From: Actinomycetota bacterium
Lineage (GTDB): Bacteria; Actinomycetota; Actinomycetes; S36-B12; UBA10799
Direction of reading: 5' to 3'
NCBI GenBank assembly: GCA_020637055.1
Contig: JACJWR010000003.1
Coordinates: 393,550 to 457,549, forward strand
Length of the DNA: 64,000 nucleotides
Positions 11,969 through 22,291 of the stretch are shown here, piece after piece. Position 1 is the first letter of the stretch, and every line of letters begins with the position of its first letter. Below the pieces are notes generated by a model, which searched no databases, was not told the DNA's origin, and worked only from the letters and a program-made list of their open reading frames with translations. Position numbers and translations under genes: made by a program.

Positions 11969-12757
11969 GTGGAGGTCGTTGACGTGCATGTGGCCGTAGG
12001 AATCGTGGCAGGCACTGCGATTCGGGGAGTGGCCGCAAACGTCATGATGCGGCCAGTGCTCGAGCGTCACCCCGACGCCTTCCTCATCACCCTTGCCAAC
12101 TACGGCGTCACCCTGCCGCTGCACCGATCACAGGAACACCTCGGCGCAGACATCGCCAGGTCGTTGGCGGAGCAGGGCAAGCCACCGGGAACCCCGATCG
12201 TGTTGGTCGGACACTCCCAAGGTGGTTTGGCAGTCCTGCGCTACACCGCCGACCATCCCGATCAGGTGGCGGCAGTGTTCAGCATCGGATCCCCCTGGAA
12301 CGGCGCCGTGAGCGCCGGACGGGTGAGCCGTCTCTTCGGCGGCCGACTGACTCCGGCGCTGCGGGACATGTCGGCCGGGTCGAGGTTCCTCACCTCGCTG
12401 CACGCGGATCTGCCGGAGGTGGCCGATCGGGTGCACAACATCTACAGCACCCATGAGCTCTTCATCCGGCCCTATGTGGACGCCCACATCGACGTTCCAG
12501 GGGTGTCGAACACGCTCATCGCAACGGAGGAGGAACACCTTCGGCACCTGCAGATGTACCCGGACCTTGCCCTCGACGACATCATCCTGGGCCGGGTCAA
12601 CCACCTCAACGAGATGCACTCGCCAGAGGTCAGGCAGAAGATCTGGGTGAAGGTGAACGAACTCAACGCCGCCTTGTCCGCCCGCGGGGCCGCCGGCCCT
12701 TCGCCGCGATCCTCCCAGCTCCCGCGCCGGGATTCGAACCTGGAACCGTCCGATTAG
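11969..12757 (+). CDS. alpha/beta hydrolase (lipase-like, GHSQGG nucleophile elbow)
   Basis: It contains the VLVGHSQGG motif. The last 13 codons (QLPRRDSNLEPSD) are read from the inverted tRNA-Asn fragment. The start is uncertain. Confidence 0.55.
   Translation: MEVVDVHVAVGIVAGTAIRGVAANVMMRPVLERHPDAFLITLANYGVTLPLHRSQEHLGADIARSLAEQGKPPGTPIVLVGHSQGGLAVLRYTADHPDQVAAVFSIGSPWNGAVSAGRVSRLFGGRLTPALRDMSAGSRFLTSLHADLPEVADRVHNIYSTHELFIRPYVDAHIDVPGVSNTLIATEEEHLRHLQMYPDLALDDIILGRVNHLNEMHSPEVRQKIWVKVNELNAALSARGAAGPSPRSSQLPRRDSNLEPSD
12718..12756 (-). repeat. displaced 3' half of tRNA-Asn (anticodon loop to 3' end), inverted relative to the intact gene
   Basis: The 39 nt at 12718-12756 are the exact reverse complement of 22251-22289. 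Confidence 0.85.
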
Positions 12758-12775
12758 GTCACATTAGGCCGGAGG

Positions 12776-12793
12776 GGTGGACTTCTGTCCACC
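12776..12793 (+). terminator. hairpin downstream of the hydrolase gene
   Basis: The stem is ggtggac / gtccacc with loop ttct. There is no U-tract, so it is only terminator-like. Confidence 0.3.
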
Positions 12794-12855
12794 GTCGGCG
12801 CAGATGGGATCGATCGGGGTGGTAGGAGGGGTGCGGTACTCCATAGCCTCAAAGC

Positions 12856-12999
12856 ATGATTATCAAATACCCGCACGAGCCGGAGAAGAACCAGTGGTCA
12901 ACGCCTCGACTCACCGTCCTGGGTGCCGGTGCCGGCGTCGCGGGGGGCAAGGTGTTCGATAAAGACGAAACCGATTTCATCCCCAACGGACCCTCGTAG
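12856..12999 (+). CDS. 47-aa small ORF, candidate peptide
   Basis: MIIKYPHEPEKNQWSTPRLTVLGAGAGVAGGKVFDKDETDFIPNGPS. The ATG is the first start after an in-frame stop. Third-position G+C is about three quarters by hand count. There is no obvious SD. The ORF is too short for the supplied track. Confidence 0.3.
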   Translation: MIIKYPHEPEKNQWSTPRLTVLGAGAGVAGGKVFDKDETDFIPNGPS

Positions 13000-13261
13000 A
13001 GGGTCACGATCCGTACTGCCTGTGGCTAGCCCAACCGGGCTGTCAGGTGCACCCCGATCATGGTGAGGCCGCGCCCACATGTGCAGGTGGCGGCGGTGGC
13101 CGCCCAAGCAGTGGCTGGCGGCAGTTCACTTCAGTATCCAAAGGACTAGCCGCAGGGATTGGACATGCCTGGAGCCAAAGAGGTGGTCTTGGGGTCGATG
13201 CCGGAGGTCAGAGCGAACGCGACGATGAGCGCGGTGCTGTAGGTCGAGTCATACGCCTTCT

Positions 13262-13287
13262 TGGGTGTAAGACCTGGGTGTAAGACC
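13262..13287. repeat. 13-bp tandem direct repeat x2 (tgggtgtaagacc)
   Basis: Two exact adjacent copies, 25 bp outside the left island repeat. Confidence 0.85.
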
Positions 13288-13312
13288 ATCTGCTGTCAAG
13301 ATTCGGACCTTT

Positions 13313-13374
13313 GAAACCGCCCCTGAGCTGCGCTAACAGTAGGGCGGGTGGGACTCGAACCCACGACCTGCCGG
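13313..13374. repeat. left att-type direct repeat (displaced tRNA-Met 3' fragment)
   Basis: gaaaccgcccctgaGctgcgctaacagtagggcgggtgggactcgaacccacgAcctgccgg matches 21987-22048 with about 4 differences. Confidence 0.8.
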
Positions 13375-13502
13375 GTCAAGGCGCAGTGTTTCTAGACGTA
13401 TCCTGATGTATCCGCAGTGGGTTGCGATCCAACCGCTGACCAGGGCAAACAGTGTCCGAGTGAGTCTGCGCGTCTCAGGACGTGAAGTCGGCGCGGAATG
13501 CA

Positions 13503-13520
13503 GGAGTCCTGTAGGACTCC
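13503..13520 (-). terminator. perfect palindrome/hairpin just downstream of the last minus-strand island gene
   Basis: ggagtcct-gt-aggactcc has 8-bp arms and is nested in an outer ggaatgc/gcattcc pairing. It lies about 30 nt after the stop of 13552..13902. No U-tract. Confidence 0.35.
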
Positions 13521-13551
13521 CTGTAATCCGACCGCAGGTGGCATTCCGACA

Positions 13552-13902
13552 TCACCGCCGTTCGTCCTCGCGCCACTTCCGCAGCGTGGTGCGCGAGATT
13601 CCCGCCAGCCGGGCCGCCTCGACCTCCGACAGCGCCCCCCGGCGCACAGCGGACAGCACCACCCGGCGCAGGTCATCTTGCTCACGGTCGTAGCGTTGCC
13701 GGGCCTTGGCGGTGCGCTTGGCGTTGGCGCTGATGGTGCCGTCGATGACTTGCTGCGCCAGTTTTGGGTCATCGCGTTTCAGTCGGGCGATGATGTAGCC
13801 CGCATCGTGCTCACGCCTCAAGTTGGTAATACCAACTTGCCCTGTCCGGTCCCCGCCGTGTTCGGCTGCCGGGGCGATGTCCTCGGCGAGCATCCGACGC
13901 AC
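13552..13902 (-). CDS. HTH DNA-binding protein, unknown role
   Basis: It has the C-terminal HTH LSEVEAARLAGISRTTLRKW, and its N-terminal half reads GYIIARLKRDDPKLAQQVIDGTISANA. The 5' end overlaps palindrome P1, so the true start may be further downstream. Confidence 0.5.
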   Translation of the reverse strand: MRRMLAEDIAPAAEHGGDRTGQVGITNLRREHDAGYIIARLKRDDPKLAQQVIDGTISANAKRTAKARQRYDREQDDLRRVVLSAVRRGALSEVEAARLAGISRTTLRKWREDERR

Positions 13903-14165
13903 CGTTGCCGCAGCGGCCTTGAAGTGGGGTTGGTATTACCAACCCCTGCCTTGCTGTGTTGGTTGGTGCCGTTCTTGGCTGCCGGGGTGATATCCACCAC
14001 CTGGGTGAGGATTTCGGCGGCACGTTCGGGGCCGTCCGATTTGATGATCGCCGCAACCTCACGCGCCTGACGAGCGTTCGAGATGGGAACCGGTGACATG
14101 TCACCGATCGCGGTAGCAGCGCTGGCAGCAGTGATGAACTCCCGAGCGCGGCGATCATCAAATCC
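13818..14165 (-). pseudogene. degenerate, frameshifted copy of the HTH-module gene
   Basis: It encodes ...DDRRAREFITAASAATAIGDMSPVPISNARQAREVAAIIKSDGPERAAEILTQV, paralogous to the C-terminus of 14308..15006. The expected ERWGF codons read gaacgtgggga instead of gaacggtgggga, a 1-nt loss. 13998-14070 repeats 14371-14443 with 3 mismatches in 73 nt. Confidence 0.4.
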
Positions 14166-15070
14166 CCACGTTCGAGTCGTACTGCCGCGAACGGTGGAAC
14201 TTGGCCCGCAGGACCGCCTACCAGTTGATGGAAGGCGCGGAGGCGGTGTGCGCCATGGCGCACATCACGCCGGTTCCGATCACGAGTGGAGTTAGTATTA
14301 CTAACTCCTACCTTGGTGTGTTGGTTGCTGCGTCGCGGATGGCTTTGGCTGTGACGGGTCCAGACTCGGCCACCTGGGTGAGGATTTCGGCGGCGCGTTC
14401 GGGGCCGTCGGTTTTGATGATCGCCGCAACCTCACGCGCCTGACCCTCATTCGCGATGGTGGGTACATTTGTACCCACCGACTCCACCGCTGTGACAGCC
14501 TCCGACGCGGCAATCATCTTGTTGGCGTAGTTGCGCTGGAATCCCCACCGTTCGCGGCAGTACCCCTCGAACGTGGCGTACCCCTCCAGCCGATACAGGC
14601 GCCCGTCACGAATCCGGGCCAACGCCTGACCCTCGTTTGTGACCGGAACAATTGTTCCGATTTGCCCCACGGCGTCGGCCGCCTCGATCATCTGCCGGGC
14701 GCGCCGATCAGTGAACCCCCACCGTTCGCGGCGGTACGCCTTGTCGAGCGCCACGGTCCCGGCGAGCACCTGGGGCAGCAGGTCGGTCCAGTCAGCGACC
14801 AAACCGCAACGCGCCAGGTCAAACCTCAAGTCATTCGATAGTTGCGGATCCGCAAGTATCGACCCGCGCGCCCACCTGCCGCTCTCGCGTTTCCCCTGAG
14901 CGATCAGCATCAACGCACGCCCAGCGGCCTGCTGATTCGACGCCGAGGGCGGCGCCGATCGCCCGCTGCCCCTTCGATAGATTCCGCCGGTCACCGTTCG
15001 CACCACTGGATCACCTGCCGGGCGTGACCGATGTAGCCGTTGGTGATGCCCGTGTGTGTACTAAGTACAC
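13819..15070. repeat. array of eight perfect palindromes (15-24 nt)
   Basis: The eight sites are 13819-13839 caagttggta-a-taccaacttg; 13926-13946 ggggttggta-t-taccaacccc; 14090-14105 cggtgacatgtcaccg; 14288-14308 ggagttagta-t-tactaactcc; 14458-14479 ggtgggtaca-tt-tgtacccacc; 14644-14659 cggaacaattgttccg; 14842-14855 ttgcggatccgcaa; 15056-15070 gtgtact-a-agtacac. Confidence 0.85.
14308..15006 (-). CDS. DNA-binding protein with two tandem HTH-like modules (RERWGF..R.A..MI.A..AV...GT.VP..NEGQA)
   Basis: Internal repeat: YRRERWGFTDRRARQMIEAADAVGQIGTIVPVTNEGQA and CRERWGFQRNYANKMIAASEAVTAVESVGTNVPTIANEGQA. The start may be the internal ATG near 14910. Confidence 0.5.
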   Translation of the reverse strand: MVRTVTGGIYRRGSGRSAPPSASNQQAAGRALMLIAQGKRESGRWARGSILADPQLSNDLRFDLARCGLVADWTDLLPQVLAGTVALDKAYRRERWGFTDRRARQMIEAADAVGQIGTIVPVTNEGQALARIRDGRLYRLEGYATFEGYCRERWGFQRNYANKMIAASEAVTAVESVGTNVPTIANEGQAREVAAIIKTDGPERAAEILTQVAESGPVTAKAIRDAATNTPR

Positions 15071-15125
15071 GCGTGGACTCTGGCCTCAACGCGGCGAGCA
15101 TCGCCCGCTGACCCTTCGACCTGGG

Positions 15126-15413
15126 CTACATCACCCGCTGCGGCGGCCGCTTGCCGTACAACCGCCACGACGTCCGCCGCCGCGACGCGGCTGCGACACG
15201 CTCGGCCGGCAGCAGGCCGGCGCGGATCCCGAACCGCAGCGACGACGGAAGGCCATCCTCGAGTCGAAGCGCATCCGCCAGGCACTCGGCGCGAACTCCG
15301 CACCCGGCGCAGATCGCCTTCGCCGCCAACTGTTCAGGCGGCCGACCCGCGAACCACAGGTCGAGGTCCGAACCCACACACGACGCGTCGTCTTGCCAGT
15401 TCCCAGGCTCCAC
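15126..15413 (-). CDS. WhiB-family transcription factor
   Basis: Four Cys in WhiB spacing: DDASCVGSDLDLWF...AKAICAGCGVRAEC (C-x2-C-x5-C). I chose the GTG start at 15413; the listed ORF extends to 15461. Confidence 0.8.
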   Translation of the reverse strand: MEPGNWQDDASCVGSDLDLWFAGRPPEQLAAKAICAGCGVRAECLADALRLEDGLPSSLRFGIRAGLLPAERVAAASRRRTSWRLYGKRPPQRVM

Positions 15414-15563
15414 CCGCCCACAATAGCCGCCACAACGCCCGTGGGCACGGCTACAACGCACGCAGACGCCCGACAGGTGTATCCGGTAGGGTCGCCGCCT
15501 TCGACGCTTCTACGGGCGTCCTGCGGCGACGGGGGGTTTCGCCGGAGGTGGCGGGTATCGTTG

Positions 15564-15755
15564 TCACCGGAGATCCTCTCCATCTCCAGCGCGGTCGAGC
15601 GAGGTCGCCATCGCTCCCGCGAGAGGCTCCACCAACCGGGTCGTGCTGGCCTCGGTTGGTGGAGCCTCACCCTGGTGAAACGGGCAATATCCGTTCGCCC
15701 ACCTCCCGATGAACGGGCAGGCTCGGACGCTGCAACGGGCTACGGGTGACTTCAT
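15564..15755 (-). CDS. small Cys/His-rich (zinc-finger-like) protein
   Basis: 63 aa: MKSPVARCSVRACPFIGRWANGYCPFHQ... Confidence 0.4.
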   Translation of the reverse strand: MKSPVARCSVRACPFIGRWANGYCPFHQGEAPPTEASTTRLVEPLAGAMATSLDRAGDGEDLR

Positions 15756-16149
15756 GCTGGAATGCCTCTCAGTGTGCGCGGGAGCGGCCTAGGACGGCCT
15801 CTGCGCCCATGTTGGTAGGTGTGTGACCCCTCGCCCGTTCGTCGCGTCTGCGGCCCGTTGGGCGTATGCTGGGGGCGCATCTCGCAGCGATGTAACGCGG
15901 CCCCTCCGACTCGACCACGGAGGGGCCGCTTCGCGTCCGTGCCCAGCGTCGGGGTCTGGATCCGCCGCGACGCCCAGCCTGCCGAGGCTCACTGTCCCAA
16001 CCCTCAACCTCGGGTTGAGACTTCTGGATACGCCGCGACGATCAGGCTCATCCCGCGCCGCCCCTAGTGGCTGCCACGGGAGGGGCATCCCCCCTCGGGG
16101 GTGAGGGTGACGGCCCCGAGACTCGGAGCCGCCACCCTTCCGCGCCCGG
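15756..16149 (-). other. hairpin-rich, apparently noncoding segment (candidate ncRNA or origin)
   Basis: The only long ORF (15789..16166, minus) has third-position G+C no higher than the local base composition by my hand count. Stable stems include gcggcccctcc/ggaggggccgc (15896-15928), ctcaacc/ggttgag (16003-16019), and gggtgacgg/ccgccaccc with one G-U pair (16105-16136). Confidence 0.3.
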
Positions 16150-16929
16150 TCAGTCGAACGACCCACGCGGCCCGTCGCCCCTGTGCGTGAGGGACTTCCT
16201 CAGCGCACGCTGCAACGTCTCCGTGGCCTTCACGCCGTTGCGTTGCAGCGCTCGCCAGTCACCTGCGAGCGTGCTCCACTCGCTCGCAACGGTCTGAGCA
16301 AGTCGAGACACGATCTGTCGATCCTTCCCGCTGTCCACGAGTTGCTGGACTTCCGTGACGAGTCGCTGACGTGCCGAGACGTACTCGGACGCGACTGGGA
16401 TCGGGAGGTCGGGCAACTTCGCCCGCGTCGATGTCTGCGCGTGCGGTGGTGTGGCGACCACACGCACGAGATCCAGACGCTGTGCCAGCACAGCCTGGGC
16501 GTCGGCAGCGGCCTTGTCGGCAGCGGCCTGCTTGCGCTCCCACGCCTTCACGGCGGCCACGGCAGCGACCTCGGCCTGGCCCAGCACAGCGTCGGCAGCC
16601 TCGCCCAGCGCGGCGTGCAGCGCCCACCAGCGCCGGGTCACGAGGTCGGCCTGCACAGCCTGGAACCGCTCGGCTGTCGCGAGTGCTTCCTCCAGCCGCC
16701 AGGTGTCGTTGCGCACGCTGGCGAGATCCTCCCCGGCCTCGGCAGCGGCGCGCAGCGCCTCGGCGTATGCGTCCGGCGCGGCAGCGTGTGCGCGTCGCGC
16801 CTCGGCCACCTTCACGTTCGCAGCCTTCAGCGCAGCGACCGCGTCCTGCAACGCGGCGTAGGCGTCCGTGACTGGGGTCGGCAGGTCGAGTCCAGACAGG
16901 TCTGGGGCGGCGTATCGGGTGCTTGTCAT
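16150..16929 (-). CDS. hypothetical Ala-rich, probably all-helical protein
   Basis: A 259-aa ORF overlapped by the upstream gene. I recognised no motif. Confidence 0.5.
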   Translation of the reverse strand: MTSTRYAAPDLSGLDLPTPVTDAYAALQDAVAALKAANVKVAEARRAHAAAPDAYAEALRAAAEAGEDLASVRNDTWRLEEALATAERFQAVQADLVTRRWWALHAALGEAADAVLGQAEVAAVAAVKAWERKQAAADKAAADAQAVLAQRLDLVRVVATPPHAQTSTRAKLPDLPIPVASEYVSARQRLVTEVQQLVDSGKDRQIVSRLAQTVASEWSTLAGDWRALQRNGVKATETLQRALRKSLTHRGDGPRGSFD

Positions 16930-17198
16930 TCTGAGTACCTCCGGTTGGGGTCGAGCAGGTGTCGTAGTTGGCCGGATTCGTGCAGGCGCACGATCTCTTC
17001 GGGCGCGAGTCCGCGCAGCCCGGCCCTCGTGATCCGCCCCTCGGCGTCGCGTTCCGGTTTCGTGCGCCCGGCGAGCAGGTCGTCGAGTTGCCCGAGAGTG
17101 CGGGCGCGTTCGATCTGCTCATGGTCGAGTCCACGCAGGTCGTCCCTCGTGAGTTGGGGCGGGCGGCTCTTGCCGCTCGGGTCGATGTAGTCGGTCAT
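16926..17198 (-). CDS. hypothetical protein with an internal duplication
   Basis: From ATG 17198: MTDYIDPSG.... It has two copies of (L/I)TR..LRGL..E.I.R....GQL..LL. Confidence 0.45.
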   Translation of the reverse strand: MTDYIDPSGKSRPPQLTRDDLRGLDHEQIERARTLGQLDDLLAGRTKPERDAEGRITRAGLRGLAPEEIVRLHESGQLRHLLDPNRRYSE

Positions 17199-17241
17199 CG
17201 GTGTTTCCTTTCGTTGGTTGTGAGGACGGTCTTCTTGGTTG

Positions 17242-17646
17242 TCATCGGGCAGGTTCTTTCGCGAGTTCGTCGGCCACCGAGTTGATCTCCTTCGCACGAT
17301 CCGGCGATCCGCCAACGTCGGGATGGAACACGCGCATGAGTGCGGCTCGGAGTTTGGGTCGCAGTTCCGGCGAGCACTCTTGGAACGCCTCGCGTACCCA
17401 CGACGCACTTGAAGTCGTGGGTTTTGCTTTGCTCCCCGTGTCCGGCGTGACGACGGTGATCCCGACCGCGGTGAACGCCGCCTTGAGTGAAGGCCAATGG
17501 CCGGATTCGACGTACCAGCAGCGATCCAACTTGGACCATCGGCGGGCATACGCGGGCACCGTGCCCTTGATGATGTTGCGCGCCTCGTAGGGCGAGCGGA
17601 TCTGCCACTCGTTGCCGAGGGCCATCTTGGTTGCGGTGACGATCAC
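17242..17646 (-). CDS. hypothetical protein; N-terminal DUF5710-like pattern and a C-terminal J-domain-like HPD segment
   Basis: The N-terminal part reads WQIRSPYEARNIIKGTVPAYARRWSKLDRCWYVE, and the C-terminal part reads LMRVFHPDVGGSPDRAKEIN. Both assignments are from memory of the family patterns. Confidence 0.45.
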   Translation of the reverse strand: MIVTATKMALGNEWQIRSPYEARNIIKGTVPAYARRWSKLDRCWYVESGHWPSLKAAFTAVGITVVTPDTGSKAKPTTSSASWVREAFQECSPELRPKLRAALMRVFHPDVGGSPDRAKEINSVADELAKEPAR

Positions 17647-19019
17647 GAGGCACGCTCGCAGCGTTCGCAGCGGTTCCGACCTGGGACTACCAGGAGGATC
17701 GGGTTACCGCAGGTGTCGCACCTCGGCCGGTCGGATGACTCGGGTGTCACGGGTGTCACGGGTGTTTCCGAAGGCGCGGGTGACTCGGGTGTCACGGGTG
17801 TCACGGGTGTTTCCGAAGGCAAGTAGCGGGACCAAGGGTCTTCCAGGTCCGCGCGCCGATAGCCGCGATGCCTATCGGGGCCGTCCCGATCCTGCTTCGG
17901 CTTCACTCCGTACTGGCGAAGGCGACGCGACAGGTCGCGCGCGTCCAAAGCCTTACCCCTCAGGTCAGACCAAGGCTCCTCCTCCATCTCGTGCAGAGCT
18001 TTGATGATGACCTCGGTGGGCAGGTGTGCCGGGTTGCCCTTCGAGTTGAACACTGTCCGAAGCGACCCCAGCAGTCGCACGTTCAAACTGGTGGTGGAGT
18101 TCTCCTCTGCCGCCTTCACCATCGCCACTGCTGCGTCTCGGGCAAGGGTCGGCCACTCACCACCTGCCAGGTCGGCGATGGCGATCAGCGGCTCCCAGCA
18201 GTCCGCGTCCCTGTCTGTGATGACATCGGGCAGGTCGGGCCAGGTGTCGGCCAACGCTGGAAGGTGTGGGTTGAGCCAGTCGGCGAGGTCGTCTCGCAGA
18301 GCGTGACCTTCGGGTTCTTGACGCCGGCGGCGATACGGTTCCACCCGTTCCCCTGGGGCGCGTCTGCGCATCCGGATGACGATCGAGCGGGTCATGATCG
18401 TGTCCGGAAGGTCGTTCAGTCCGGCTAGTGCCACGGGGGCGAAGCAGGGGAAGGTTTCGATGGTGAACGTCTTTCCCGTCATCGCCACCCGCTGCGCGTA
18501 TCCGGAAGACCGGTATCCCGCGTTCACGAACCCGCGCAGGTCTTCGTGATCCTTCGATGCGCGAGGTCCGAACACTGTGTCCGCCTCATCGAGCATGATC
18601 GTTGGCCGGTCTACTACGAATCCGTCTTCGTCTGGGGTCATGGACCTGTAGAGCACTGCCACGGAGACGTTGAAGGTCAGCATCGGGTTGGGTGAAAGCA
18701 ACTCCAAGACTTCGAGGAGTCGAGTCTTTCCCGAACCGGGTTCGGGTGAGAGTGCCGCTAGCCGGGGTGTGGTGTCGAAGGCTTCGACTGCGTGGGCGTG
18801 GGCAACCCACAGGGTCGTTGCGGTGTAGGCGTGTTCGTCGGGTAGGACGGTGAAGCGCCTGATGAATGTCTCCACGTCTCCGAGTAGCCGCGCGCCTTCC
18901 GGGGTATCCGTGACATCCGTGACATCCGAGTCATCCGTGACCCGCGCGCCTTCCGGGGTATCCGTGACATCCGTGACATCCGAGTCATCCGGGTCTTGCG
19001 GTGCGGTGAAGGTCATCAT
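17643..19019 (-). CDS. DUF3631-type P-loop protein with a C-terminal zinc ribbon
   Basis: It has Walker A SPEPGSGKTRLLE, Walker B IMLDEAD and a C-terminal CDTCGNP...RCERCERAS. Repeated peptides sit at both termini. Confidence 0.75.
   Translation of the reverse strand: MMTFTAPQDPDDSDVTDVTDTPEGARVTDDSDVTDVTDTPEGARLLGDVETFIRRFTVLPDEHAYTATTLWVAHAHAVEAFDTTPRLAALSPEPGSGKTRLLEVLELLSPNPMLTFNVSVAVLYRSMTPDEDGFVVDRPTIMLDEADTVFGPRASKDHEDLRGFVNAGYRSSGYAQRVAMTGKTFTIETFPCFAPVALAGLNDLPDTIMTRSIVIRMRRRAPGERVEPYRRRRQEPEGHALRDDLADWLNPHLPALADTWPDLPDVITDRDADCWEPLIAIADLAGGEWPTLARDAAVAMVKAAEENSTTSLNVRLLGSLRTVFNSKGNPAHLPTEVIIKALHEMEEEPWSDLRGKALDARDLSRRLRQYGVKPKQDRDGPDRHRGYRRADLEDPWSRYLPSETPVTPVTPESPAPSETPVTPVTPESSDRPRCDTCGNPILLVVPGRNRCERCERAS
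17737..17820. repeat. tandem 45-nt units (1 full + 39 nt) containing 4 x GTCACGG
   Basis: gactcgggtgtcacgggtgtcacgggtgtttccgaaggcgcgggt is repeated. GTCACGG occurs at 17746, 17755, 17791 and 17800. Confidence 0.85.
18888..18989. repeat. tandem 54-nt units containing 5 x CCGTGAC, an inverted counterpart of 17737-17820
   Basis: ccgcgcgccttccggggtatccgtgacatccgtgacatccgagtcatc occurs twice. CCGTGAC occurs at 18908, 18917, 18935, 18962 and 18971. Confidence 0.85.
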
Positions 19020-19906
19020 GCGGCACCTCCGTTGGTGCCGTGCCGCATCCCAGACTTGATCGTGGCCGTCGCTTCACGCTCGGTGAGGCCCAACCGGACC
19101 GCCGTATCGGTGAGGCTGCGGTGAAGGTCGTCATCGAGCAGTCCGAGGACGGCGGCCCGCTTGGACGCCCAGAACAGTCCCGCGTTCCGGTTGCCCTCGC
19201 CTTGCCGCTCCAGCCACTTCACCAACTGGTCGCCGTCGTTGCCGCGACGGCCCGGCGTCCTCTTCGGCTGCGGGCGTTGCAGTCGCGGGGGGTCTAGCCG
19301 GTTGGAGATCGCCTCCACGTCGAGCGGTTTTGGGTCGCGAACGTGGTCGAAGTTCAACCACTTGTACCGGCCTGGTCCGTCGACGCCTTCATCTGCGGCG
19401 ACAGTGGACGGGGCGAGGAGGACGTATCCGCCTGCGGCCTTGATGTCGATCCGGTGGCGGGGAAATGATCGGCATCCGGAGCCGGACGTGGGGAAGAACA
19501 GGTGCTTGCCACCGTTGCGGGTTTCGGCCTCGGCGAAAGCGCCCGCGAGTAGACCGGCGCGGCCCAGTCGGCGAAGCGCGGCGAACCCGTCTCCGTCGAG
19601 CCGGACGTCCACGTCGAGCACGTCGAAGAAGACCCCGGTGGGTGTTCCGATGTTCGCTTCCGGCTCCGAAGTCCACCACCTTCGGATGGTGGCTACGTCG
19701 GTCGTGGCGTCTTTGAATCCGTGCGGGGCCAACCTTCCGATCGGTGCTTTCCCGCCCGGCTCGCAGGGGAAGACGGGCCATCCGGCTTTGACGTAGACGA
19801 GGGCAGCATCCGCGAGTTGGGGTACCCTTGTCTTGATCTTCTCGTCTTGGAGATCCTCGGCCGCCCGTGCTCCCCGGTGTGGGCGGCCTCTCCCTTCCCG
19901 GCTCAT
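19016..19906 (-). CDS. bifunctional DNA primase/polymerase (Prim-Pol) domain protein
   Basis: YVKAGWPVFPCEPGGKAPIG..HGFKDATTD...IGTPTGVFFDVLDVD...GGKHLFF is the typical Prim-Pol N-terminal domain. Confidence 0.8.
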   Translation of the reverse strand: MSREGRGRPHRGARAAEDLQDEKIKTRVPQLADAALVYVKAGWPVFPCEPGGKAPIGRLAPHGFKDATTDVATIRRWWTSEPEANIGTPTGVFFDVLDVDVRLDGDGFAALRRLGRAGLLAGAFAEAETRNGGKHLFFPTSGSGCRSFPRHRIDIKAAGGYVLLAPSTVAADEGVDGPGRYKWLNFDHVRDPKPLDVEAISNRLDPPRLQRPQPKRTPGRRGNDGDQLVKWLERQGEGNRNAGLFWASKRAAVLGLLDDDLHRSLTDTAVRLGLTEREATATIKSGMRHGTNGGAA

Positions 19907-20085
19907 CGGCAGCCCCCGGCGGAATCGGCGAACAAGGCTTCGATGGAATCGGCGAAGATGATCCGCCGCCGCCCTATCTGGGTGAACTCGATTCGACCCT
20001 CACGCATGAGTCGGTAGAGCGTTGCTCGGGAGAGCGTCGTCTTGCTGACCGCTTCGGTCACGGTGAGCGCTTCGCGCATGGTCAC
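19903..20085 (-). CDS. xis: excisionase / AlpA-like HTH protein
   Basis: 60 aa: LTVTEAVSKTTLSRATLYRLMREGRIEFTQIGRRRIIF. It sits in the usual xis position. Confidence 0.7.
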   Translation of the reverse strand: MTMREALTVTEAVSKTTLSRATLYRLMREGRIEFTQIGRRRIIFADSIEALFADSAGGCR

Positions 20086-20196
20086 TCCTTTCGTTGAGTG
20101 ACTTCACTTTCACTGATGTATGAGTGATCGGCATGTCAGTGATGCCAAATCAGTGAAACTCATGATTCACTCTGGCCCGTAGAGATCCGCAGTGAT
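20083..20196. promoter_or_regulatory. divergent switch region with nine AGTGA/TCACT pentamers
   Basis: This is a locally AT-richer intergenic stretch between xis (-) and 20209 (+). Pentamers occur at 20083, 20098, 20105, 20111, 20124, 20139, 20153, 20168 and 20192. Some are arranged as inverted pairs (agtga-ct-tcact; tcact-8-agtga). Confidence 0.45.
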
Positions 20197-20208
20197 ACAG
20201 TCCCTTTC

Positions 20209-20799
20209 ATGGGCACTGAAAACGGAGCGATTCCGGAAGTTCACTGGTCAATCGGATTCACCGGCAAGATGGCACTGATCCGCCGCAGAATCGGCGAGCA
20301 TGACCGGATCTTCGCGACGATCGCAGACAACGTGACCTTCACGGTCCTGCGGGCGGGCACCCGCATCGCCGAAGGCGCGGTGATTGTGGACGAGGCCGAT
20401 GGGCGGCTGGTCATCAGTGAGTACAGCGTCCGATTCCCCGAATCGAACCCCGACATCCTCTGTGCGGACTTCCTGCGATCCCTCACTGAAGGTGCCGCGC
20501 GGAAGTTGTTGGTGGAGACCCAGATCAACGGGGGCGAGATCAAGATTCCTGAAGGCTTGACCCGCAGCCTCGGGCGTGCAGGACTACCAGCTGCGATCGC
20601 ATCCGGATTCCAACGCAAGGAGCGACCGCGACTCTCGGATGAACTCTTGCGCGAAGTCCACTCGGTCTACGCCAGTGCCGAGGATCGCGCGCGACTGACG
20701 GCCGTCCGTAAGCACTTCGGGATCACCCAGTCGCGGGCGCAGAACTGGGTCGCAGCGTCACGCAAACGCCTGCCCGAACTGTGGGAGGTCTCGCGGTGA
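20209..20799 (+). CDS. hypothetical protein with a C-terminal HTH-like segment, coupled to the integrase
   Basis: A 196-aa ORF with C-terminal RLTAVRKHFGITQSRAQNWVAASRKRL. Its stop overlaps the integrase GTG (GTGA at 20796-20799). Confidence 0.55.
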   Translation: MGTENGAIPEVHWSIGFTGKMALIRRRIGEHDRIFATIADNVTFTVLRAGTRIAEGAVIVDEADGRLVISEYSVRFPESNPDILCADFLRSLTEGAARKLLVETQINGGEIKIPEGLTRSLGRAGLPAAIASGFQRKERPRLSDELLREVHSVYASAEDRARLTAVRKHFGITQSRAQNWVAASRKRLPELWEVSR

Positions 20800-21944
20800 G
20801 CCGTAGCCTGTGGAAGCGCAAGGATGGGCGTTGGGGCGGCGAGGAGCGCGTCCGCGACCCACGCACGGGCGGCATCGTCAAGGTGTCGGCCACGGCCCGC
20901 ACCCGCAAAGAGGTTGTGGCCCGGCTGGAAGGCCGCGCGCAGCGGGTGAAGGACCACAAGGCGCAGCGGGACTCCACCTGCACCTTCGCCGATGCGGCAA
21001 CGTCCTGGGCATCCTCTTTGGCCGACGTCGCCCAGTATTCGGCTACGACCCGCGAGTTGTATTCCGGGGACGTGCGACGCTACCTCGCCGATGGTGGCCT
21101 TGCGATCGGCGAGATCCCGCTGTCGAAGTTGCGCGGTTCCGACTTCGAGGATGCACTGGGAGAGATGAGGTCGCGCGGGTTGTCCGCATCGGTGCGTAGG
21201 CGGTTCCTCACAATCTCCAAGGCCATCATTCGGCGGGAGATGCGCGACGGCCGGCTCGGGTTCGACCCGACGCAGGGGGTGAACCGTCCCAAGTCCGATC
21301 CGATCCAGCCGAAGGCGCACACCGCTGCCGAGGTTCGCGAAATCCTGACCCGCACGTCGGGTACCCGCGTGGGCAACCTGGTGGTGTTCCTCGCCCACAC
21401 GGGCATGCGGGTTGGTGAGGCACTGGCCCTGCAATGGCCGGACGTGGACTTCGACGCTTCCACGGTCCGGATCTCCGGCACGTTGGTGCGGATCACCGGG
21501 GAGGGCGTCTACAAGGCTGCGACGAAGACGAAGGGTTCCAAGAGGACGGTGCCGCTGAACTCGTACGCGGTTGAGGCCTTGCGCCGCCAGGCGCAGATGC
21601 AGACAGCGGACGCCGAACGTGCCCACTCCAAGTACGAGTTCAGCGGGTACATCTTCACCGGCGACTTCGGCAACGTGCTCGACCTTCGCAACGCGTCGCG
21701 CGCCTACAAGGATGCACTCAAGTCCGACAGGGATGGGGAGTCGATCGAATCGTCTTTCCATCGGCTGCGGCATTCGTTCGCGACGTTGCTTGTGGGGACC
21801 GGGGAGTCCGCGAACACGGTCGCGGCGATCCTGGGTCACAACTCCACGAGGGTGACATTGGAGACGTACGCGGCGGCGCTGGACGAGTTCAAGTCGCAGG
21901 CTACGGACCGGCTCGGTTCCCTGTATGAAGCCGATTCCCTGTAA
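20796..21944 (+). CDS. int: tyrosine recombinase / phage-type integrase
   Basis: It has the N-terminal SAM-like region and the C-terminal catalytic pattern ...HTGMRVGEALAL..., HRLRHSFATLLV, LGHNSTRVTLETY. Confidence 0.9.
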   Translation: MSRSLWKRKDGRWGGEERVRDPRTGGIVKVSATARTRKEVVARLEGRAQRVKDHKAQRDSTCTFADAATSWASSLADVAQYSATTRELYSGDVRRYLADGGLAIGEIPLSKLRGSDFEDALGEMRSRGLSASVRRRFLTISKAIIRREMRDGRLGFDPTQGVNRPKSDPIQPKAHTAAEVREILTRTSGTRVGNLVVFLAHTGMRVGEALALQWPDVDFDASTVRISGTLVRITGEGVYKAATKTKGSKRTVPLNSYAVEALRRQAQMQTADAERAHSKYEFSGYIFTGDFGNVLDLRNASRAYKDALKSDRDGESIESSFHRLRHSFATLLVGTGESANTVAAILGHNSTRVTLETYAAALDEFKSQATDRLGSLYEADSL

Positions 21945-21986
21945 CTTCCCCTGTAACGGCCTCGCGGGTGGTTGTCGACCGGTGGT

Positions 21987-22048
21987 GAATCGCCCCCTGA
22001 CCTGCGCTAACAGTAGGGCGGGTGGGACTCGAACCCACGGCCTGCCGG
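21987..22048. repeat. right att-type direct repeat, overlapping the 3' part of the intact tRNA-Met
   Basis: Matches 13313-13374. Confidence 0.8.
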
Positions 22049-22087
22049 ATTATGAGTCCGCCGCTCTAACCAGCTGAGCTACCGCCC
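22013..22087 (-). tRNA. tRNA-Met (anticodon CAT; could alternatively be the lysidine-modified Ile2 type)
   Basis: The minus strand reads ggggcggtagctcagctggttagagcggcggactCATaatccggcaggccgtgggttcgagtcccacccgcccta and folds as a cloverleaf. The acceptor end has G1-U72. No CCA is encoded. Confidence 0.85.
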
Positions 22088-22216
22088 CGTGGATGGCACC
22101 ACCCTACAAGGAGCGATCCTCGTCCGGAGCAGCACTCGAGGCGACGCCACCGGACTCCGTGCGCCGGTAGGCGTGCCGGTTCCAGGCCGGTGGTGCTGCT
22201 ACCCTTGTCCACGCAT

Positions 22217-22291
22217 TCCCGCGTAGCTCAACGGCAGAGCATCCGACTGTTAATCGGACGGTTCCAGGTTCGAATCCCGGCGCGGGAGCCA
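22217..22291 (+). tRNA. tRNA-Asn (anticodon GTT), CCA encoded
   Basis: tcccgcgtagctcaacggcagagcatccgactGTTaatcggacggttccaggttcgaatcccggcgcgggagcca. Confidence 0.9.

Follow-up and report, generated by a model that had tools for sequence, protein, structure and literature searches.

A tRNA-Met island of an actinomycete with a tandem scaffold-end protein on an AICE-type replicon, a candidate PICI-like phage satellite

Phage satellites shape gene transfer and phage resistance, and few of them have been described in Actinomycetota, a phylum that includes Mycobacterium, Corynebacterium and Streptomyces and many industrial, skin or soil genera. We analyzed a stretch of 64,000 nucleotides from an actinomycetotal genome (assembly GCA_020637055.1, contig JACJWR010000003.1; hereafter the window) that holds an 8.7-kb island at a tRNA-Met gene, here called island A; a second island of the same genome, at a tRNA-Val gene, is called island B. 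Two kinds of described systems come closest to island A. One is the phage-inducible chromosomal island (PICI), such as the Staphylococcus aureus pathogenicity island (SaPI) SaPI1 with its helper phage 80alpha. The SaPI1 protein CpmB is a 72-residue helical dimer with the same C-terminal capsid-binding motif and contacts as the 80alpha scaffold, and Dearborn et al. proposed that it outcompetes the scaffold for capsid protein, small capsids being the result (PMC5644958). The median size of predicted PICIs is ~9 kb, equal to the size of island A, and predicted PICIs exist in Mycobacterium and Rhodococcus (PMC10085698); isolated satellites of Streptomyces and Mycolicibacterium exist as well and are annotated with their own capsid or packaging proteins (PMC10690885; PMC12822802). 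The other is the actinomycete integrative and conjugative element (AICE), in which the DUF3631 protein RepAM is the replication protein of pMEA300 and Prim-Pol beside RepAM is a described replication module (PMC3218068). With moderate confidence we read island A as an integrated PICI-like phage satellite that is built on an AICE-type replicon and carries a CpmB-like capsid hijacker.

The hijacker is proposed from a small cassette of island A with the following features, GC3 being the third-position G+C.

16926..17198, minus strand: p90, a 90-aa protein in which the C-terminal motif known from actinophage scaffolds stands twice in tandem (phrog_2592, E=1.3e-6)
16150..16929, minus strand: p259, a 259-aa Ala-rich all-helical protein, ATGA-coupled to p90 (GC3 0.80)
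15756..16149, minus strand: hairpin-rich non-coding stretch of 394 nt, a candidate cis-acting site (packaging site or structured RNA) with no coding GC3 pattern in any frame
15564..15755, minus strand: 63-aa Cys-rich open reading frame (ORF) of uncertain coding status (GC3 only 0.70), inside the block shared with island B

The ORFs of island A were scanned with Pfam, PHROGs and NCBIfam, and with PADLOC for defence families. The match of p90 to the head scaffolding profile phrog_2592 covers positions 175-206 of 209 (the last 32), and the protein consists of two scaffold-end copies and little else: repeat 1 (PQLTRDDLRGLDHEQIERARTLGQLDDLLAGR) and repeat 2 (RITRAGLRGLAPEEIVRLHESGQLRHLLDPN), each of 30 residues, both align with the C-termini of actinophage scaffolds, for which the motif consensus is QLTRxDLxxMxxEQIxxAxxxGQLxxLL. 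A good Shine-Dalgarno sequence (AAAGGAAAC) lies 4 nt before the p90 ATG, and the stop codon overlaps the start of p259 (ATGA). The AlphaFold2 model of p90, made from the family alignment, shows two similar short-helix modules (pLDDT 75), and a Foldseek search with it gave no match. Neither p90 nor p259 had a tblastn match at E<=0.01 in 50,697 phage records, the motif surfacing only by a relaxed search and by the PHROG profile, and word-based homologue searches of p90, p259 and p196, another island protein, found essentially the genome's own copies only. The relaxed tblastn search of p90 in the same records gave 20 weak matches, of which 15 fell on annotated scaffolding proteins (Thermobifida P318, Streptomyces phiSASD1 and twelve M. 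abscessus prophages) and one further on an unannotated gene of Actinomyces xhp1. In phiSASD1, P318 and phiGD20-1 the match is the last ~30-40 residues of the scaffold (ending ...QLTRADLKGMTDEQIHKAKAEGRLNTLLGIGK, ...QLTREDLRRMTPEQIVEARKKGQLEALARGAI and ...QLTRDDLKNMSPKAIREARESGQLDELMGK*, respectively), with the start of the major capsid gene no more than 40 nt downstream. We regard the motif as marking where a large group of actinophage scaffolds probably bind the capsid protein, which matters for studies of phage assembly and for engineering transducing particles. By this sequence comparison p90 would be an analogue of CpmB and not a sequence relative, that is, a small helical protein with a scaffold-type C-terminal motif. 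The preliminary description had called the island satellite-like or mobilisable, solely from the lack of transfer and virion genes, and had singled out several ORFs for profile searches; one of these, 16926..17198, turned out to encode a scaffold-motif protein, and this tandem mimic of a scaffold end is positive evidence for the satellite-like reading, while 13552..13902 gave a small-terminase (TerS) match confined to its helix-turn-helix (HTH).

To define the p90 family, 1.84 billion representatives were searched exhaustively with HMMER (E<=1e-3), giving 86 cluster representatives, all of 52-194 aa. Most of the 38 members read carry two or three copies of the motif. One member, P0023, matches the P318 scaffold at E=5e-4 (versus 2.3 Gb of phage DNA), and another, P0005, has extra motif copies fused to a typical scaffold core. 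Neither the 50,697 phage records nor the fetched IMG/VR contigs encoded a free-standing tandem protein, and scanning viral contigs with P0003 alone or P0023 alone gave no match. When IMG/VR was scanned with two other members, 15 loci were found, and 14 of these encode a full-length scaffold (frames of 206-446 aa) that ends in a single motif; 13 of these 14 have a homologue of the major capsid protein (MCP) ~20-30 nt downstream, belonging to PF25209 (Phage_capsid_4), P22-coat-like or Phage_capsid_2 proteins, and nine have a portal gene upstream. In phages the motif is thus present once, at the end of the scaffold; the stand-alone tandem form is something different. Over the motif, the identity of some tandem-motif proteins to IMG/VR scaffold C-termini reaches 79% (loci L065-L073 versus P0012; ...DLKGMSADEIVAAQKAGQLDDYLG in P0012 versus ...DLKTMSADQIVAAQDAGQLDDYLS in an IMG/VR scaffold), which suggests that such proteins were recently captured from particular helpers or mimic them tightly.

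Island B is 8.87 kb long (G000:C2:548020-556930 on contig 2; L013 10021-18931) and is bounded by perfect 40-nt repeats at tRNA-Val(GAC). Its integrase and xis differ from those of island A, its WhiB protein stands at the same position as that of island A and is 40% identical to it, and its replication gene encodes a P4-alpha-like D5_N/DUF5906/Pox_D5 primase-helicase (860 aa), not Prim-Pol and RepAM. The two islands share only 15552-17224, at 90% nucleotide identity, which comprises p90, p259, the non-coding stretch and the Cys-rich ORF. The p90 copies are 92% identical in amino acids with a dN/dS of 0.12, and the p259 copies 95.7% identical with a dN/dS of 0.11; such ratios indicate purifying selection, so that p90 and p259 are functional proteins, and the cassette has moved between two islands that are otherwise unrelated. 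In the 394-nt stretch, which folds as RNA at -217 kcal/mol (z=-4.0; 0 of 100 shuffles as stable) into several long GC-rich hairpins, the stems are kept between the two islands, whereas the loop of a 10-bp GC-rich hairpin is fully diverged; the stretch belongs to no Rfam family. The Cys-rich ORF had no match in PHROGs or PADLOC.

Apart from its identity to the copy in island B, p259 found no other homologue among 5.8 billion protein clusters, and sequence searches of the Protein Data Bank (PDB) with p259 and with p134, a replication-module protein described below, gave nothing usable. Its AlphaFold2 model consists of five long helices (pLDDT 61.6). Since p259 is helical and is coupled to and co-inherited with p90, it is likely to be the partner of p90 in the proposed capsid hijacking. 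Homology of p259 to the proteins that follow the tandem-motif genes in two other islands (L039 and L041, below) was considered and found no support from BLASTP.

Of the five other contexts of tandem-motif genes that we examined, four, island B among them, are small integrative islands, where the gene lies just downstream of replication genes and the gene after it, adjacent or overlapping, has no known function. The island L039, from another family of the class (G682), is 10.1 kb long with perfect 46-nt repeats at tRNA-Leu, and its gene order is int, xis, DUF3631/RepAM, tandem-motif protein, overlapping 224-aa gene, HNH endonuclease and small terminase (phrog_1496, E=3.6e-19). The seemingly empty gap that follows its p90-like/224-aa pair (L039 10808-11794, G682:C31) holds the HNH gene just upstream of a P27-type small terminase gene. 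Pairing of HNH with TerS is typical of cos-packaging phages. The island L041 (G605), 9.15 kb in the 3' end of dcd, encodes an integrase (of which the ORF filter recovered only the C-terminal part), an HTH_3 repressor, DUF2742, an AAA_25 protein, the tandem-motif protein and an adjacent 310-aa protein, which is homologous to the 224-aa protein of L039 (32% identity, E=6e-8). A relative of the same family as the window (G290) has, at the tRNA-Asn of the same Asn/Met locus, an island in which a p90 homologue (43% identity, E=3e-15) is followed by a helical protein. Around the third double-motif match of the class search, L040 (G701), lie two HTH_38 genes, an HTH_17-containing gene, a SprT-like gene and a Xer-type integrase. 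This region, in which we detected no att repeats, resembles a mobile element without clearly belonging to the same island type.

In terms of helper exploitation, island A has p90, its sister L039 has TerS and HNH, and an island with a related replicon (L048, below) has TerS, neither of the latter genes being found in island A. Judged by gene content, these 9-10-kb integrative islands, with interchangeable replicons, no virion genes and scaffold-end mimic, TerS or HNH as accessories, follow the gene logic of PICIs. The satellite-like reading gains further from these sister islands, since the same kind of gene goes with HNH and TerS in L039 and island B shares only the p90 module with island A. 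More tentatively, and with less confidence than we have in the reading of island A itself, the tandem scaffold-end proteins may be an unrecognised class of capsid-assembly hijackers across the class Actinomycetes, acting as single-chain bivalent analogues of CpmB and travelling as an exchangeable cassette (p90, a helical partner and a structured non-coding site) on islands whose integrases and replicons (RepAM, D5-type primase-helicase, AAA_25) are unrelated; the two islands of this genome would then converge on one helper, and the class would be a first molecular handle on PICI-type piracy in Actinomycetota. In the literature searched we found no description of tandem scaffold-end proteins or of satellites with AICE replicons. 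If the satellite reading of island A holds, a small tandem scaffold-end ORF after a replication module would be a sequence signature for minimalist PICI-type satellites, AICE replicons would be recruitable into phage-dependent elements, and a bivalent scaffold-end mimic would be a simple mechanism of capsid redirection distinct from CpmB, Sid, TcaP and Ccm.

The layout of island A can be compared with that of SaPI1 by means of its integration genes and the region between them.

20781..21944, plus strand: tyrosine integrase (PF00589, E=1.3e-25; GC3 0.84)
20209..20799, plus strand: p196, a 196-aa near-orphan overlapping the integrase start (GC3 0.75)
20086..20208, unstranded: divergent control region, from the gene layout, with the leftward operon beginning at xis on one side and the rightward pair p196-int on the other
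19903..20085, minus strand: excisionase xis (TIGR01764, E=5.4e-8, above the cut-off; phrog_66, E=7.6e-7)

Like the SaPIs, island A is ~9 kb long, has an integrase and att sites and its own primase/replication-initiator module, and lacks virion and lysis genes. Its int and xis, already called as such in the preliminary description, match PF00589 and TIGR01764 at the above E values, and together with the flanking att repeats at tRNA-Met they amount to the integration equipment of a PICI. Scans of the supported ORFs with Pfam, PHROGs and NCBIfam found no virion structural or lysis family, and no capsid, protease, portal or head-tail connector genes of the kind carried by capsid-forming PICIs (cfPICIs) or EPIPs. 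The divergent switch is also alike, with int (and p196) on one side and the xis, replication and hijack genes on the other; the control region lies in the lowest-G+C stretch of island A (0.587 over the 600 nt of 20000-20599). Judged from the layout only, p196 would hold the place of an Stl-like master repressor. It had no match in Pfam, PHROGs, NCBIfam or PADLOC, a PDB sequence search gave nothing usable, and it has a single homologue in the protein collection, 52% identical. The small protein with a scaffold-type C-terminal motif corresponds to the CpmB principle (PMC5644958), and sister islands have TerS as PICIs do. On the other hand, the host phylum differs, the replicon is of the AICE type (Prim-Pol and RepAM) instead of the SaPI Pri-Rep, p90 has no similarity to CpmB beyond the principle and bears two motifs per chain where CpmB dimerises, and island A, known here from sequence alone, has a WhiB protein, no TerS and no recognised Stl homologue.

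If island A is a satellite of this kind, its cycle might run as follows. A helper phage with the cognate capsid protein would infect the cell or be induced, and the switch would flip; Xis and Int would excise the island, and Prim-Pol and RepAM would replicate the excised DNA. p90, probably together with p259, would compete with the phage scaffold for a Phage_capsid_4 or P22-like capsid protein, and with two binding motifs per chain it could bridge neighbouring capsid subunits, like a covalent CpmB dimer without the scaffold core. Assembly would thereby be redirected to small capsids fitting ~9 kb, or else the assembly of phage procapsids would be poisoned. Because islands A and B lack a small terminase, packaging would need a helper-type cos or pac site, for which the 394-nt stretch 15756-16149 is a candidate, as it travels with p90 and p259.

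Several points weigh against this satellite reading. The best phage matches of p90 are only ~53% identical over 30-40 residues, and capsid binding by the actinophage motif is argued from its position and by analogy with P22 and 80alpha. The genome, which is 93% complete, had no match to an HK97-type capsid, Phage_capsid_4, P22 coat or portal, nor to three families of the large terminase (TerL), TerS phrog_1496 or a motif-bearing scaffold, and thus shows no resident helper; a Phage_capsid_4 gene was found in only one of 40 relatives. A prophage in the same bacterial family (G292) has a scaffold ending ...KQLTRADMSRMTNDQIVKADEAGLFDDLKAGRL beside an MCP of the Phage_capsid_4 type. Searches with PHROGs and phrog_1496 recognised neither a small terminase nor an HNH in islands A and B. 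The fold model of p259 is weak, its Foldseek matches being non-significant long-helix proteins, and the protein has no detectable similarity to its positional counterparts in the other islands. The 394-nt stretch matches no phage DNA in the database, and the packaging route is one that we purely infer. Finally, the backbone is AICE-like: as Prim-Pol with RepAM is a known AICE module, the element is chimeric rather than unlike an AICE. The preliminary description had likened the island to P4-like or PICI-like satellites more than to AICEs or prophages; the scaffold mimic supports the PICI-like part, whereas the separation from AICEs does not hold for the replication backbone.

The same scaffold-motif evidence would also suit an island that serves defence only, in which p90, together with p259, acts as a decoy: it would bind the capsid protein of an incoming phage, abort head assembly and so protect the host population, the island itself never being packaged and moving rarely or by other means. 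The lack of TerS, HNH or an identifiable cos or pac site in islands A and B and the lack of a resident helper in the genome searches fit such a decoy, and known satellites do interfere with their helpers (PMC5644958). We consider it unlikely, because each of four independent islands, all within a tight size range of 8.7-10 kb, combines a full int/xis pair with an autonomous replicon, as expected of elements that are excised, amplified and packaged, because TerS in sister islands, with or without HNH, only makes sense for packaging, and because PADLOC found no defence family in island A. It nevertheless ranks first among the three rivals to the satellite reading, followed by a conjugatively mobilised AICE derivative and then by an inert remnant, in that order.

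The replicon of island A consists of three genes coupled to xis.

19016..19906, minus strand: Prim-Pol, bifunctional primase-polymerase (PF09250, E=1.7e-33; phrog_5852, E=8.1e-34)
17643..19019, minus strand: RepAM-type replication protein, DUF3631 (PF12307, E=1.4e-61)
17242..17646, minus strand: p134, a 134-aa protein coupled to repAM, with a C-terminal HPD-containing J-domain-like segment (GC3 0.76; no Pfam match)

Overlaps of 4 nt chain xis, Prim-Pol, RepAM and p134. Prim-Pol (PF09250) and the DUF3631 protein (PF12307) had been recognised as a replication module in the preliminary description and stand; the label DUF5710-like, given to 17242..17646, found no Pfam support. The C-terminal HPD segment of p134 (...LMRVFHPDVGGSPDRAKEIN...) weakly resembles helices II-III of a J-domain, and residues 99-130 weakly match the J-protein TIM14 (E=0.17). 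A p134 homologue adjoining RepAM is present in the locus L058 of an unrelated metagenome-assembled genome (MAG; 33% identity, E=6e-13). From these resemblances p134 may be a replication accessory that recruits DnaK. At both ends of repAM we found inverted arrays of 9-nt units containing GTCACGG / CCGTGAC (17723-17829, D2; 18870-19004, D1), which translate as DVTDVTD... and TPVTPVTPE... peptides and are candidate iterons. In-frame repeats of a similar kind (SVHTSVHT..., VNDVNDVN) occur in the split helicase of the island in G290. In P4 the ori and crr flank the alpha gene, and the repAM arrays are reminiscent of this arrangement. Island A thus contains an autonomous replication module of Prim-Pol, RepAM and iteron-like arrays, whose families differ from SaPI Pri-Rep.

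With respect to the AICEs of the RepAM/Prim-Pol type (the pMEA300, pMEA100 and pSE211 group; Ghinet et al. 2011, PMC3218068), island A has in common the tyrosine integrase at a tRNA 3' end, xis, the adjacent Prim-Pol and DUF3631/RepAM genes, the actinobacterial host and the small size, so that the Int/Xis and RepAM/Prim-Pol parts of an AICE are all there. The difference lies in transfer: island A has no FtsK/SpoIIIE Tra, spread, Kor or Nudix genes and has the scaffold-mimic module instead. A six-frame PF01580 search of the whole 2.67-Mb genome gave no match in island A or B, so that this AICE-defining Tra protein is lacking from both; the chromosomal ftsK was the only strong match, the next best being weak (30 bits, with neighbours in frame). 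The Pfam scan of island A found no P-loop protein besides RepAM and no Spd, Nudix or Kor-type genes, and no relaxase, transfer, capsid, portal or terminase family was found in its ORFs with Pfam, PHROGs and NCBIfam, except for the p90 scaffold motif and the HTH-only TerS match. The earlier statement that no FtsK/TraB-type transfer protein, relaxase, capsid, portal or terminase could be recognised is therefore upheld by these profile scans and the genome search, and the conjugative translocase or relaxase that would have made island A an ordinary AICE or mobilisable element was not among the profile matches.

Prim-Pol with RepAM being a documented AICE module (PMC3218068), and int, xis and rep being laid out as in AICEs, island A could instead be an integrative mobilisable element derived from an AICE, which kept int, xis and Prim-Pol/RepAM, lost tra and is moved in trans by a co-resident FtsK-like translocase acting at a clt-like site, with the dense repeat and palindrome arrays of island A as possible sites. 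This is improbable in our view: there is no FtsK/SpoIIIE in either island, the genome shows only the chromosomal FtsK as a strong match and no obvious helper AICE, the Spd, Nudix and Kor-type genes are missing as stated, and a scaffold mimic under purifying selection and the TerS/HNH of sister islands would be left unexplained. A tblastn search for the FtsK motor at 22 RepAM-homologue loci from other Actinomycetota gave no match either, the search being insensitive. None of these 22 loci has a tandem-motif gene, which shows that the cassette is not bound to RepAM; an island of Demequina among them (L048) has int, xis, RepAM, WhiB ... TerS. RepAM homologues 45-49% identical were also seen on MAG contigs labelled Alphaproteobacteria (Hyphomicrobium, Afifella, Xanthobacteraceae; L045, L047, L049, L052, L055 and L064), and these labels reflect either binning errors or a spread of the replicon beyond Actinomycetota.

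P4-like satellites, with the external scaffold Sid and the alpha primase-helicase, are likewise small integrative and replicative elements, and share with the satellite proposed here a scaffold-type redirection of the capsid. Island B, and not island A, has an alpha-like D5_N/DUF5906 primase-helicase, while in island A the arrays flank the replication gene. What differs is the proposed mimicry, which is of the internal C-terminus of the scaffold and not an external cage; the P4 core genes sid, psu, delta, eps and cnr were absent from the general Pfam/PHROG scans of island A, in which no dedicated profiles were run. Among actinobacterial satellites, MiniFlayer and MulchRoom of Streptomyces (PMC10690885), the EPIPs of Mycolicibacterium (PMC12822802) and the phiRv1/phiRv2-like predicted PICIs (PMC10085698) resemble the satellite proposed here in being small (~10-17 kb) and phage-dependent. 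The EPIPs are annotated with their own TerS, adaptor, stopper, scaffold, MCP and tape measure, and MiniFlayer and MulchRoom with capsid genes (PMC12822802); unlike them, island A has none of these structural or packaging proteins, just the tandem scaffold-end mimic.

GC3 supports 11 real genes in island A, and beyond those described above it contains the following features in its left part.

15126..15461, minus strand: WhiB-like Fe-S transcription factor (PF02467, E=2.2e-12; phrog_472, E=4.7e-14)
14308..15006, minus strand: rep232, a 232-aa protein with repeated RERWGF...GTxVP..NEGQA modules, putative DNA-binding repeats (GC3 0.76)
13819..15070, unstranded: eight clustered perfect palindromes, the arms of which measure 7-10 nt (palindrome scan)
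13552..13902, minus strand: 116-aa protein encoded at the end of the long leftward operon, its HTH being C-terminal, a candidate regulator or packaging-site binder (GC3 0.79)

The WhiB assignment made earlier agrees with PF02467 at the E value listed. rep232 had no Pfam match and only weak matches to PHROGs of unknown function; its PDB sequence matches to the designed propeller 'Cake' contained no passing stretch and were treated as repeat artefacts. The 116-aa protein matches HTH_28 at E=2.9e-4, below the Pfam cut-off, the HTH DNA-binding profile phrog_2311 at E=1.9e-5 and, with its HTH portion only, the small terminase profile phrog_4102 at E=6.5e-4. As a small terminase it was rejected for now, because the match is confined to the HTH, the HTH is C-terminal and there is no BLASTP similarity to the TerS of L039. 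The palindromes form the densest cluster of the window, seven of them starting in one 1250-bp bin compared with 0-3 in every other bin. Three of the eight are 21-mers of the type GTTGGTAnTACCAAC, spaced by 100-215 bp in and around the gene 14308..15006. The cluster looks like an array of the operator, centromere or packaging type, and its members are probably binding sites for one HTH protein of the island.

The ends of island A and its integration site are given below.

13312..13374, unstranded: attL, a copy of the 3' 36 nt of tRNA-Met and 27 nt downstream (direct repeat D4, 92% identical to 21986-22048)
21986..22048, unstranded: attR (direct repeat D4), overlapping the 3' 36 nt of the intact tRNA-Met
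22013..22088, minus strand: tRNA-Met(CAT), the integration target (ARAGORN; Rfam RF00005, 65.7 bits)
22217..22291, plus strand: tRNA-Asn (ARAGORN)

The att repeats, their span of 8.7 kb and the intact tRNA-Met agree with the preliminary description, although the repeat length is 63 nt and not 62 nt; 58 of the 63 positions are identical, and the start-to-start spacing is 8674 bp. All five mismatches, read from the sequence, lie outside an identical 31-nt core, which is the pattern expected of attL and attR formed by crossover between a diverged attB and attP. The integrase, 20781..21944 on the plus strand, indeed stands beside the tRNA 3' end and stops 42 nt before attR. Island A was not found in any of the 40 relatives (10 of the same genus), in which only the flanks and the two tRNAs match. 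In one of them, G008, the same left and right flanking genes enclose tRNA-Asn and tRNA-Met alone, with ~100 bp from the tRNA-Met 3' end to the next gene, which provides the uninterrupted site that had been proposed as a check. The absence from 40 relatives and the empty site of G008 thus rule out that the same 8.7 kb stands at this locus in all relatives without att duplication.

Could island A be an inert remnant, that is, a decaying and immobile piece of a prophage or AICE whose leftover ORFs include a fragment of a scaffold gene? The related G290 island is clearly in decay, its integrase being frameshifted and its primase-helicase split; the locus of island A has been rearranged by inversion of the tRNA pair; and a partial, decayed copy of the rep232 module lies at ~13997-14086 (90-nt direct repeat D3, 91% identity). 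We regard this as very improbable, given that none of the 11 genes is disrupted and all show a coding-type GC3, that the operon is held together by four-base overlaps and that both att sites are present, and that p90 is a complete ORF with its own Shine-Dalgarno sequence and ATG, has two full motif copies, belongs to a family of small proteins and is under purifying selection.

With regard to the inversion, the tRNA-Asn/tRNA-Met pair (22013-22291) and island A are inverted relative to G008, G009, G005 and G010, where the left flank adjoins tRNA-Asn on the minus strand and tRNA-Met on the plus strand faces the right flank. At the left flank of the window we found a perfect 39-nt inverted copy of the 3' half of tRNA-Asn (12718-12756), followed by a 555-bp region X (12757-13311) that has no similarity to any island compared. 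In the simplest model, an older element at tRNA-Asn left the 39-nt fragment and region X, and the segment from tRNA-Asn to the tRNA-Met island was then inverted. The tRNA-Met of the same locus in G290 bears a 2.9-kb insert (L042 8453-11346, G290:C3), bounded by a 31-nt repeat of its 3' end and containing an 800-aa open frame, the N-terminus of which, by eye, we take to resemble a heavy-metal P-type ATPase. This insert marks the Asn/Met tRNA pair as a hot spot for insertions in the bacterial family concerned.

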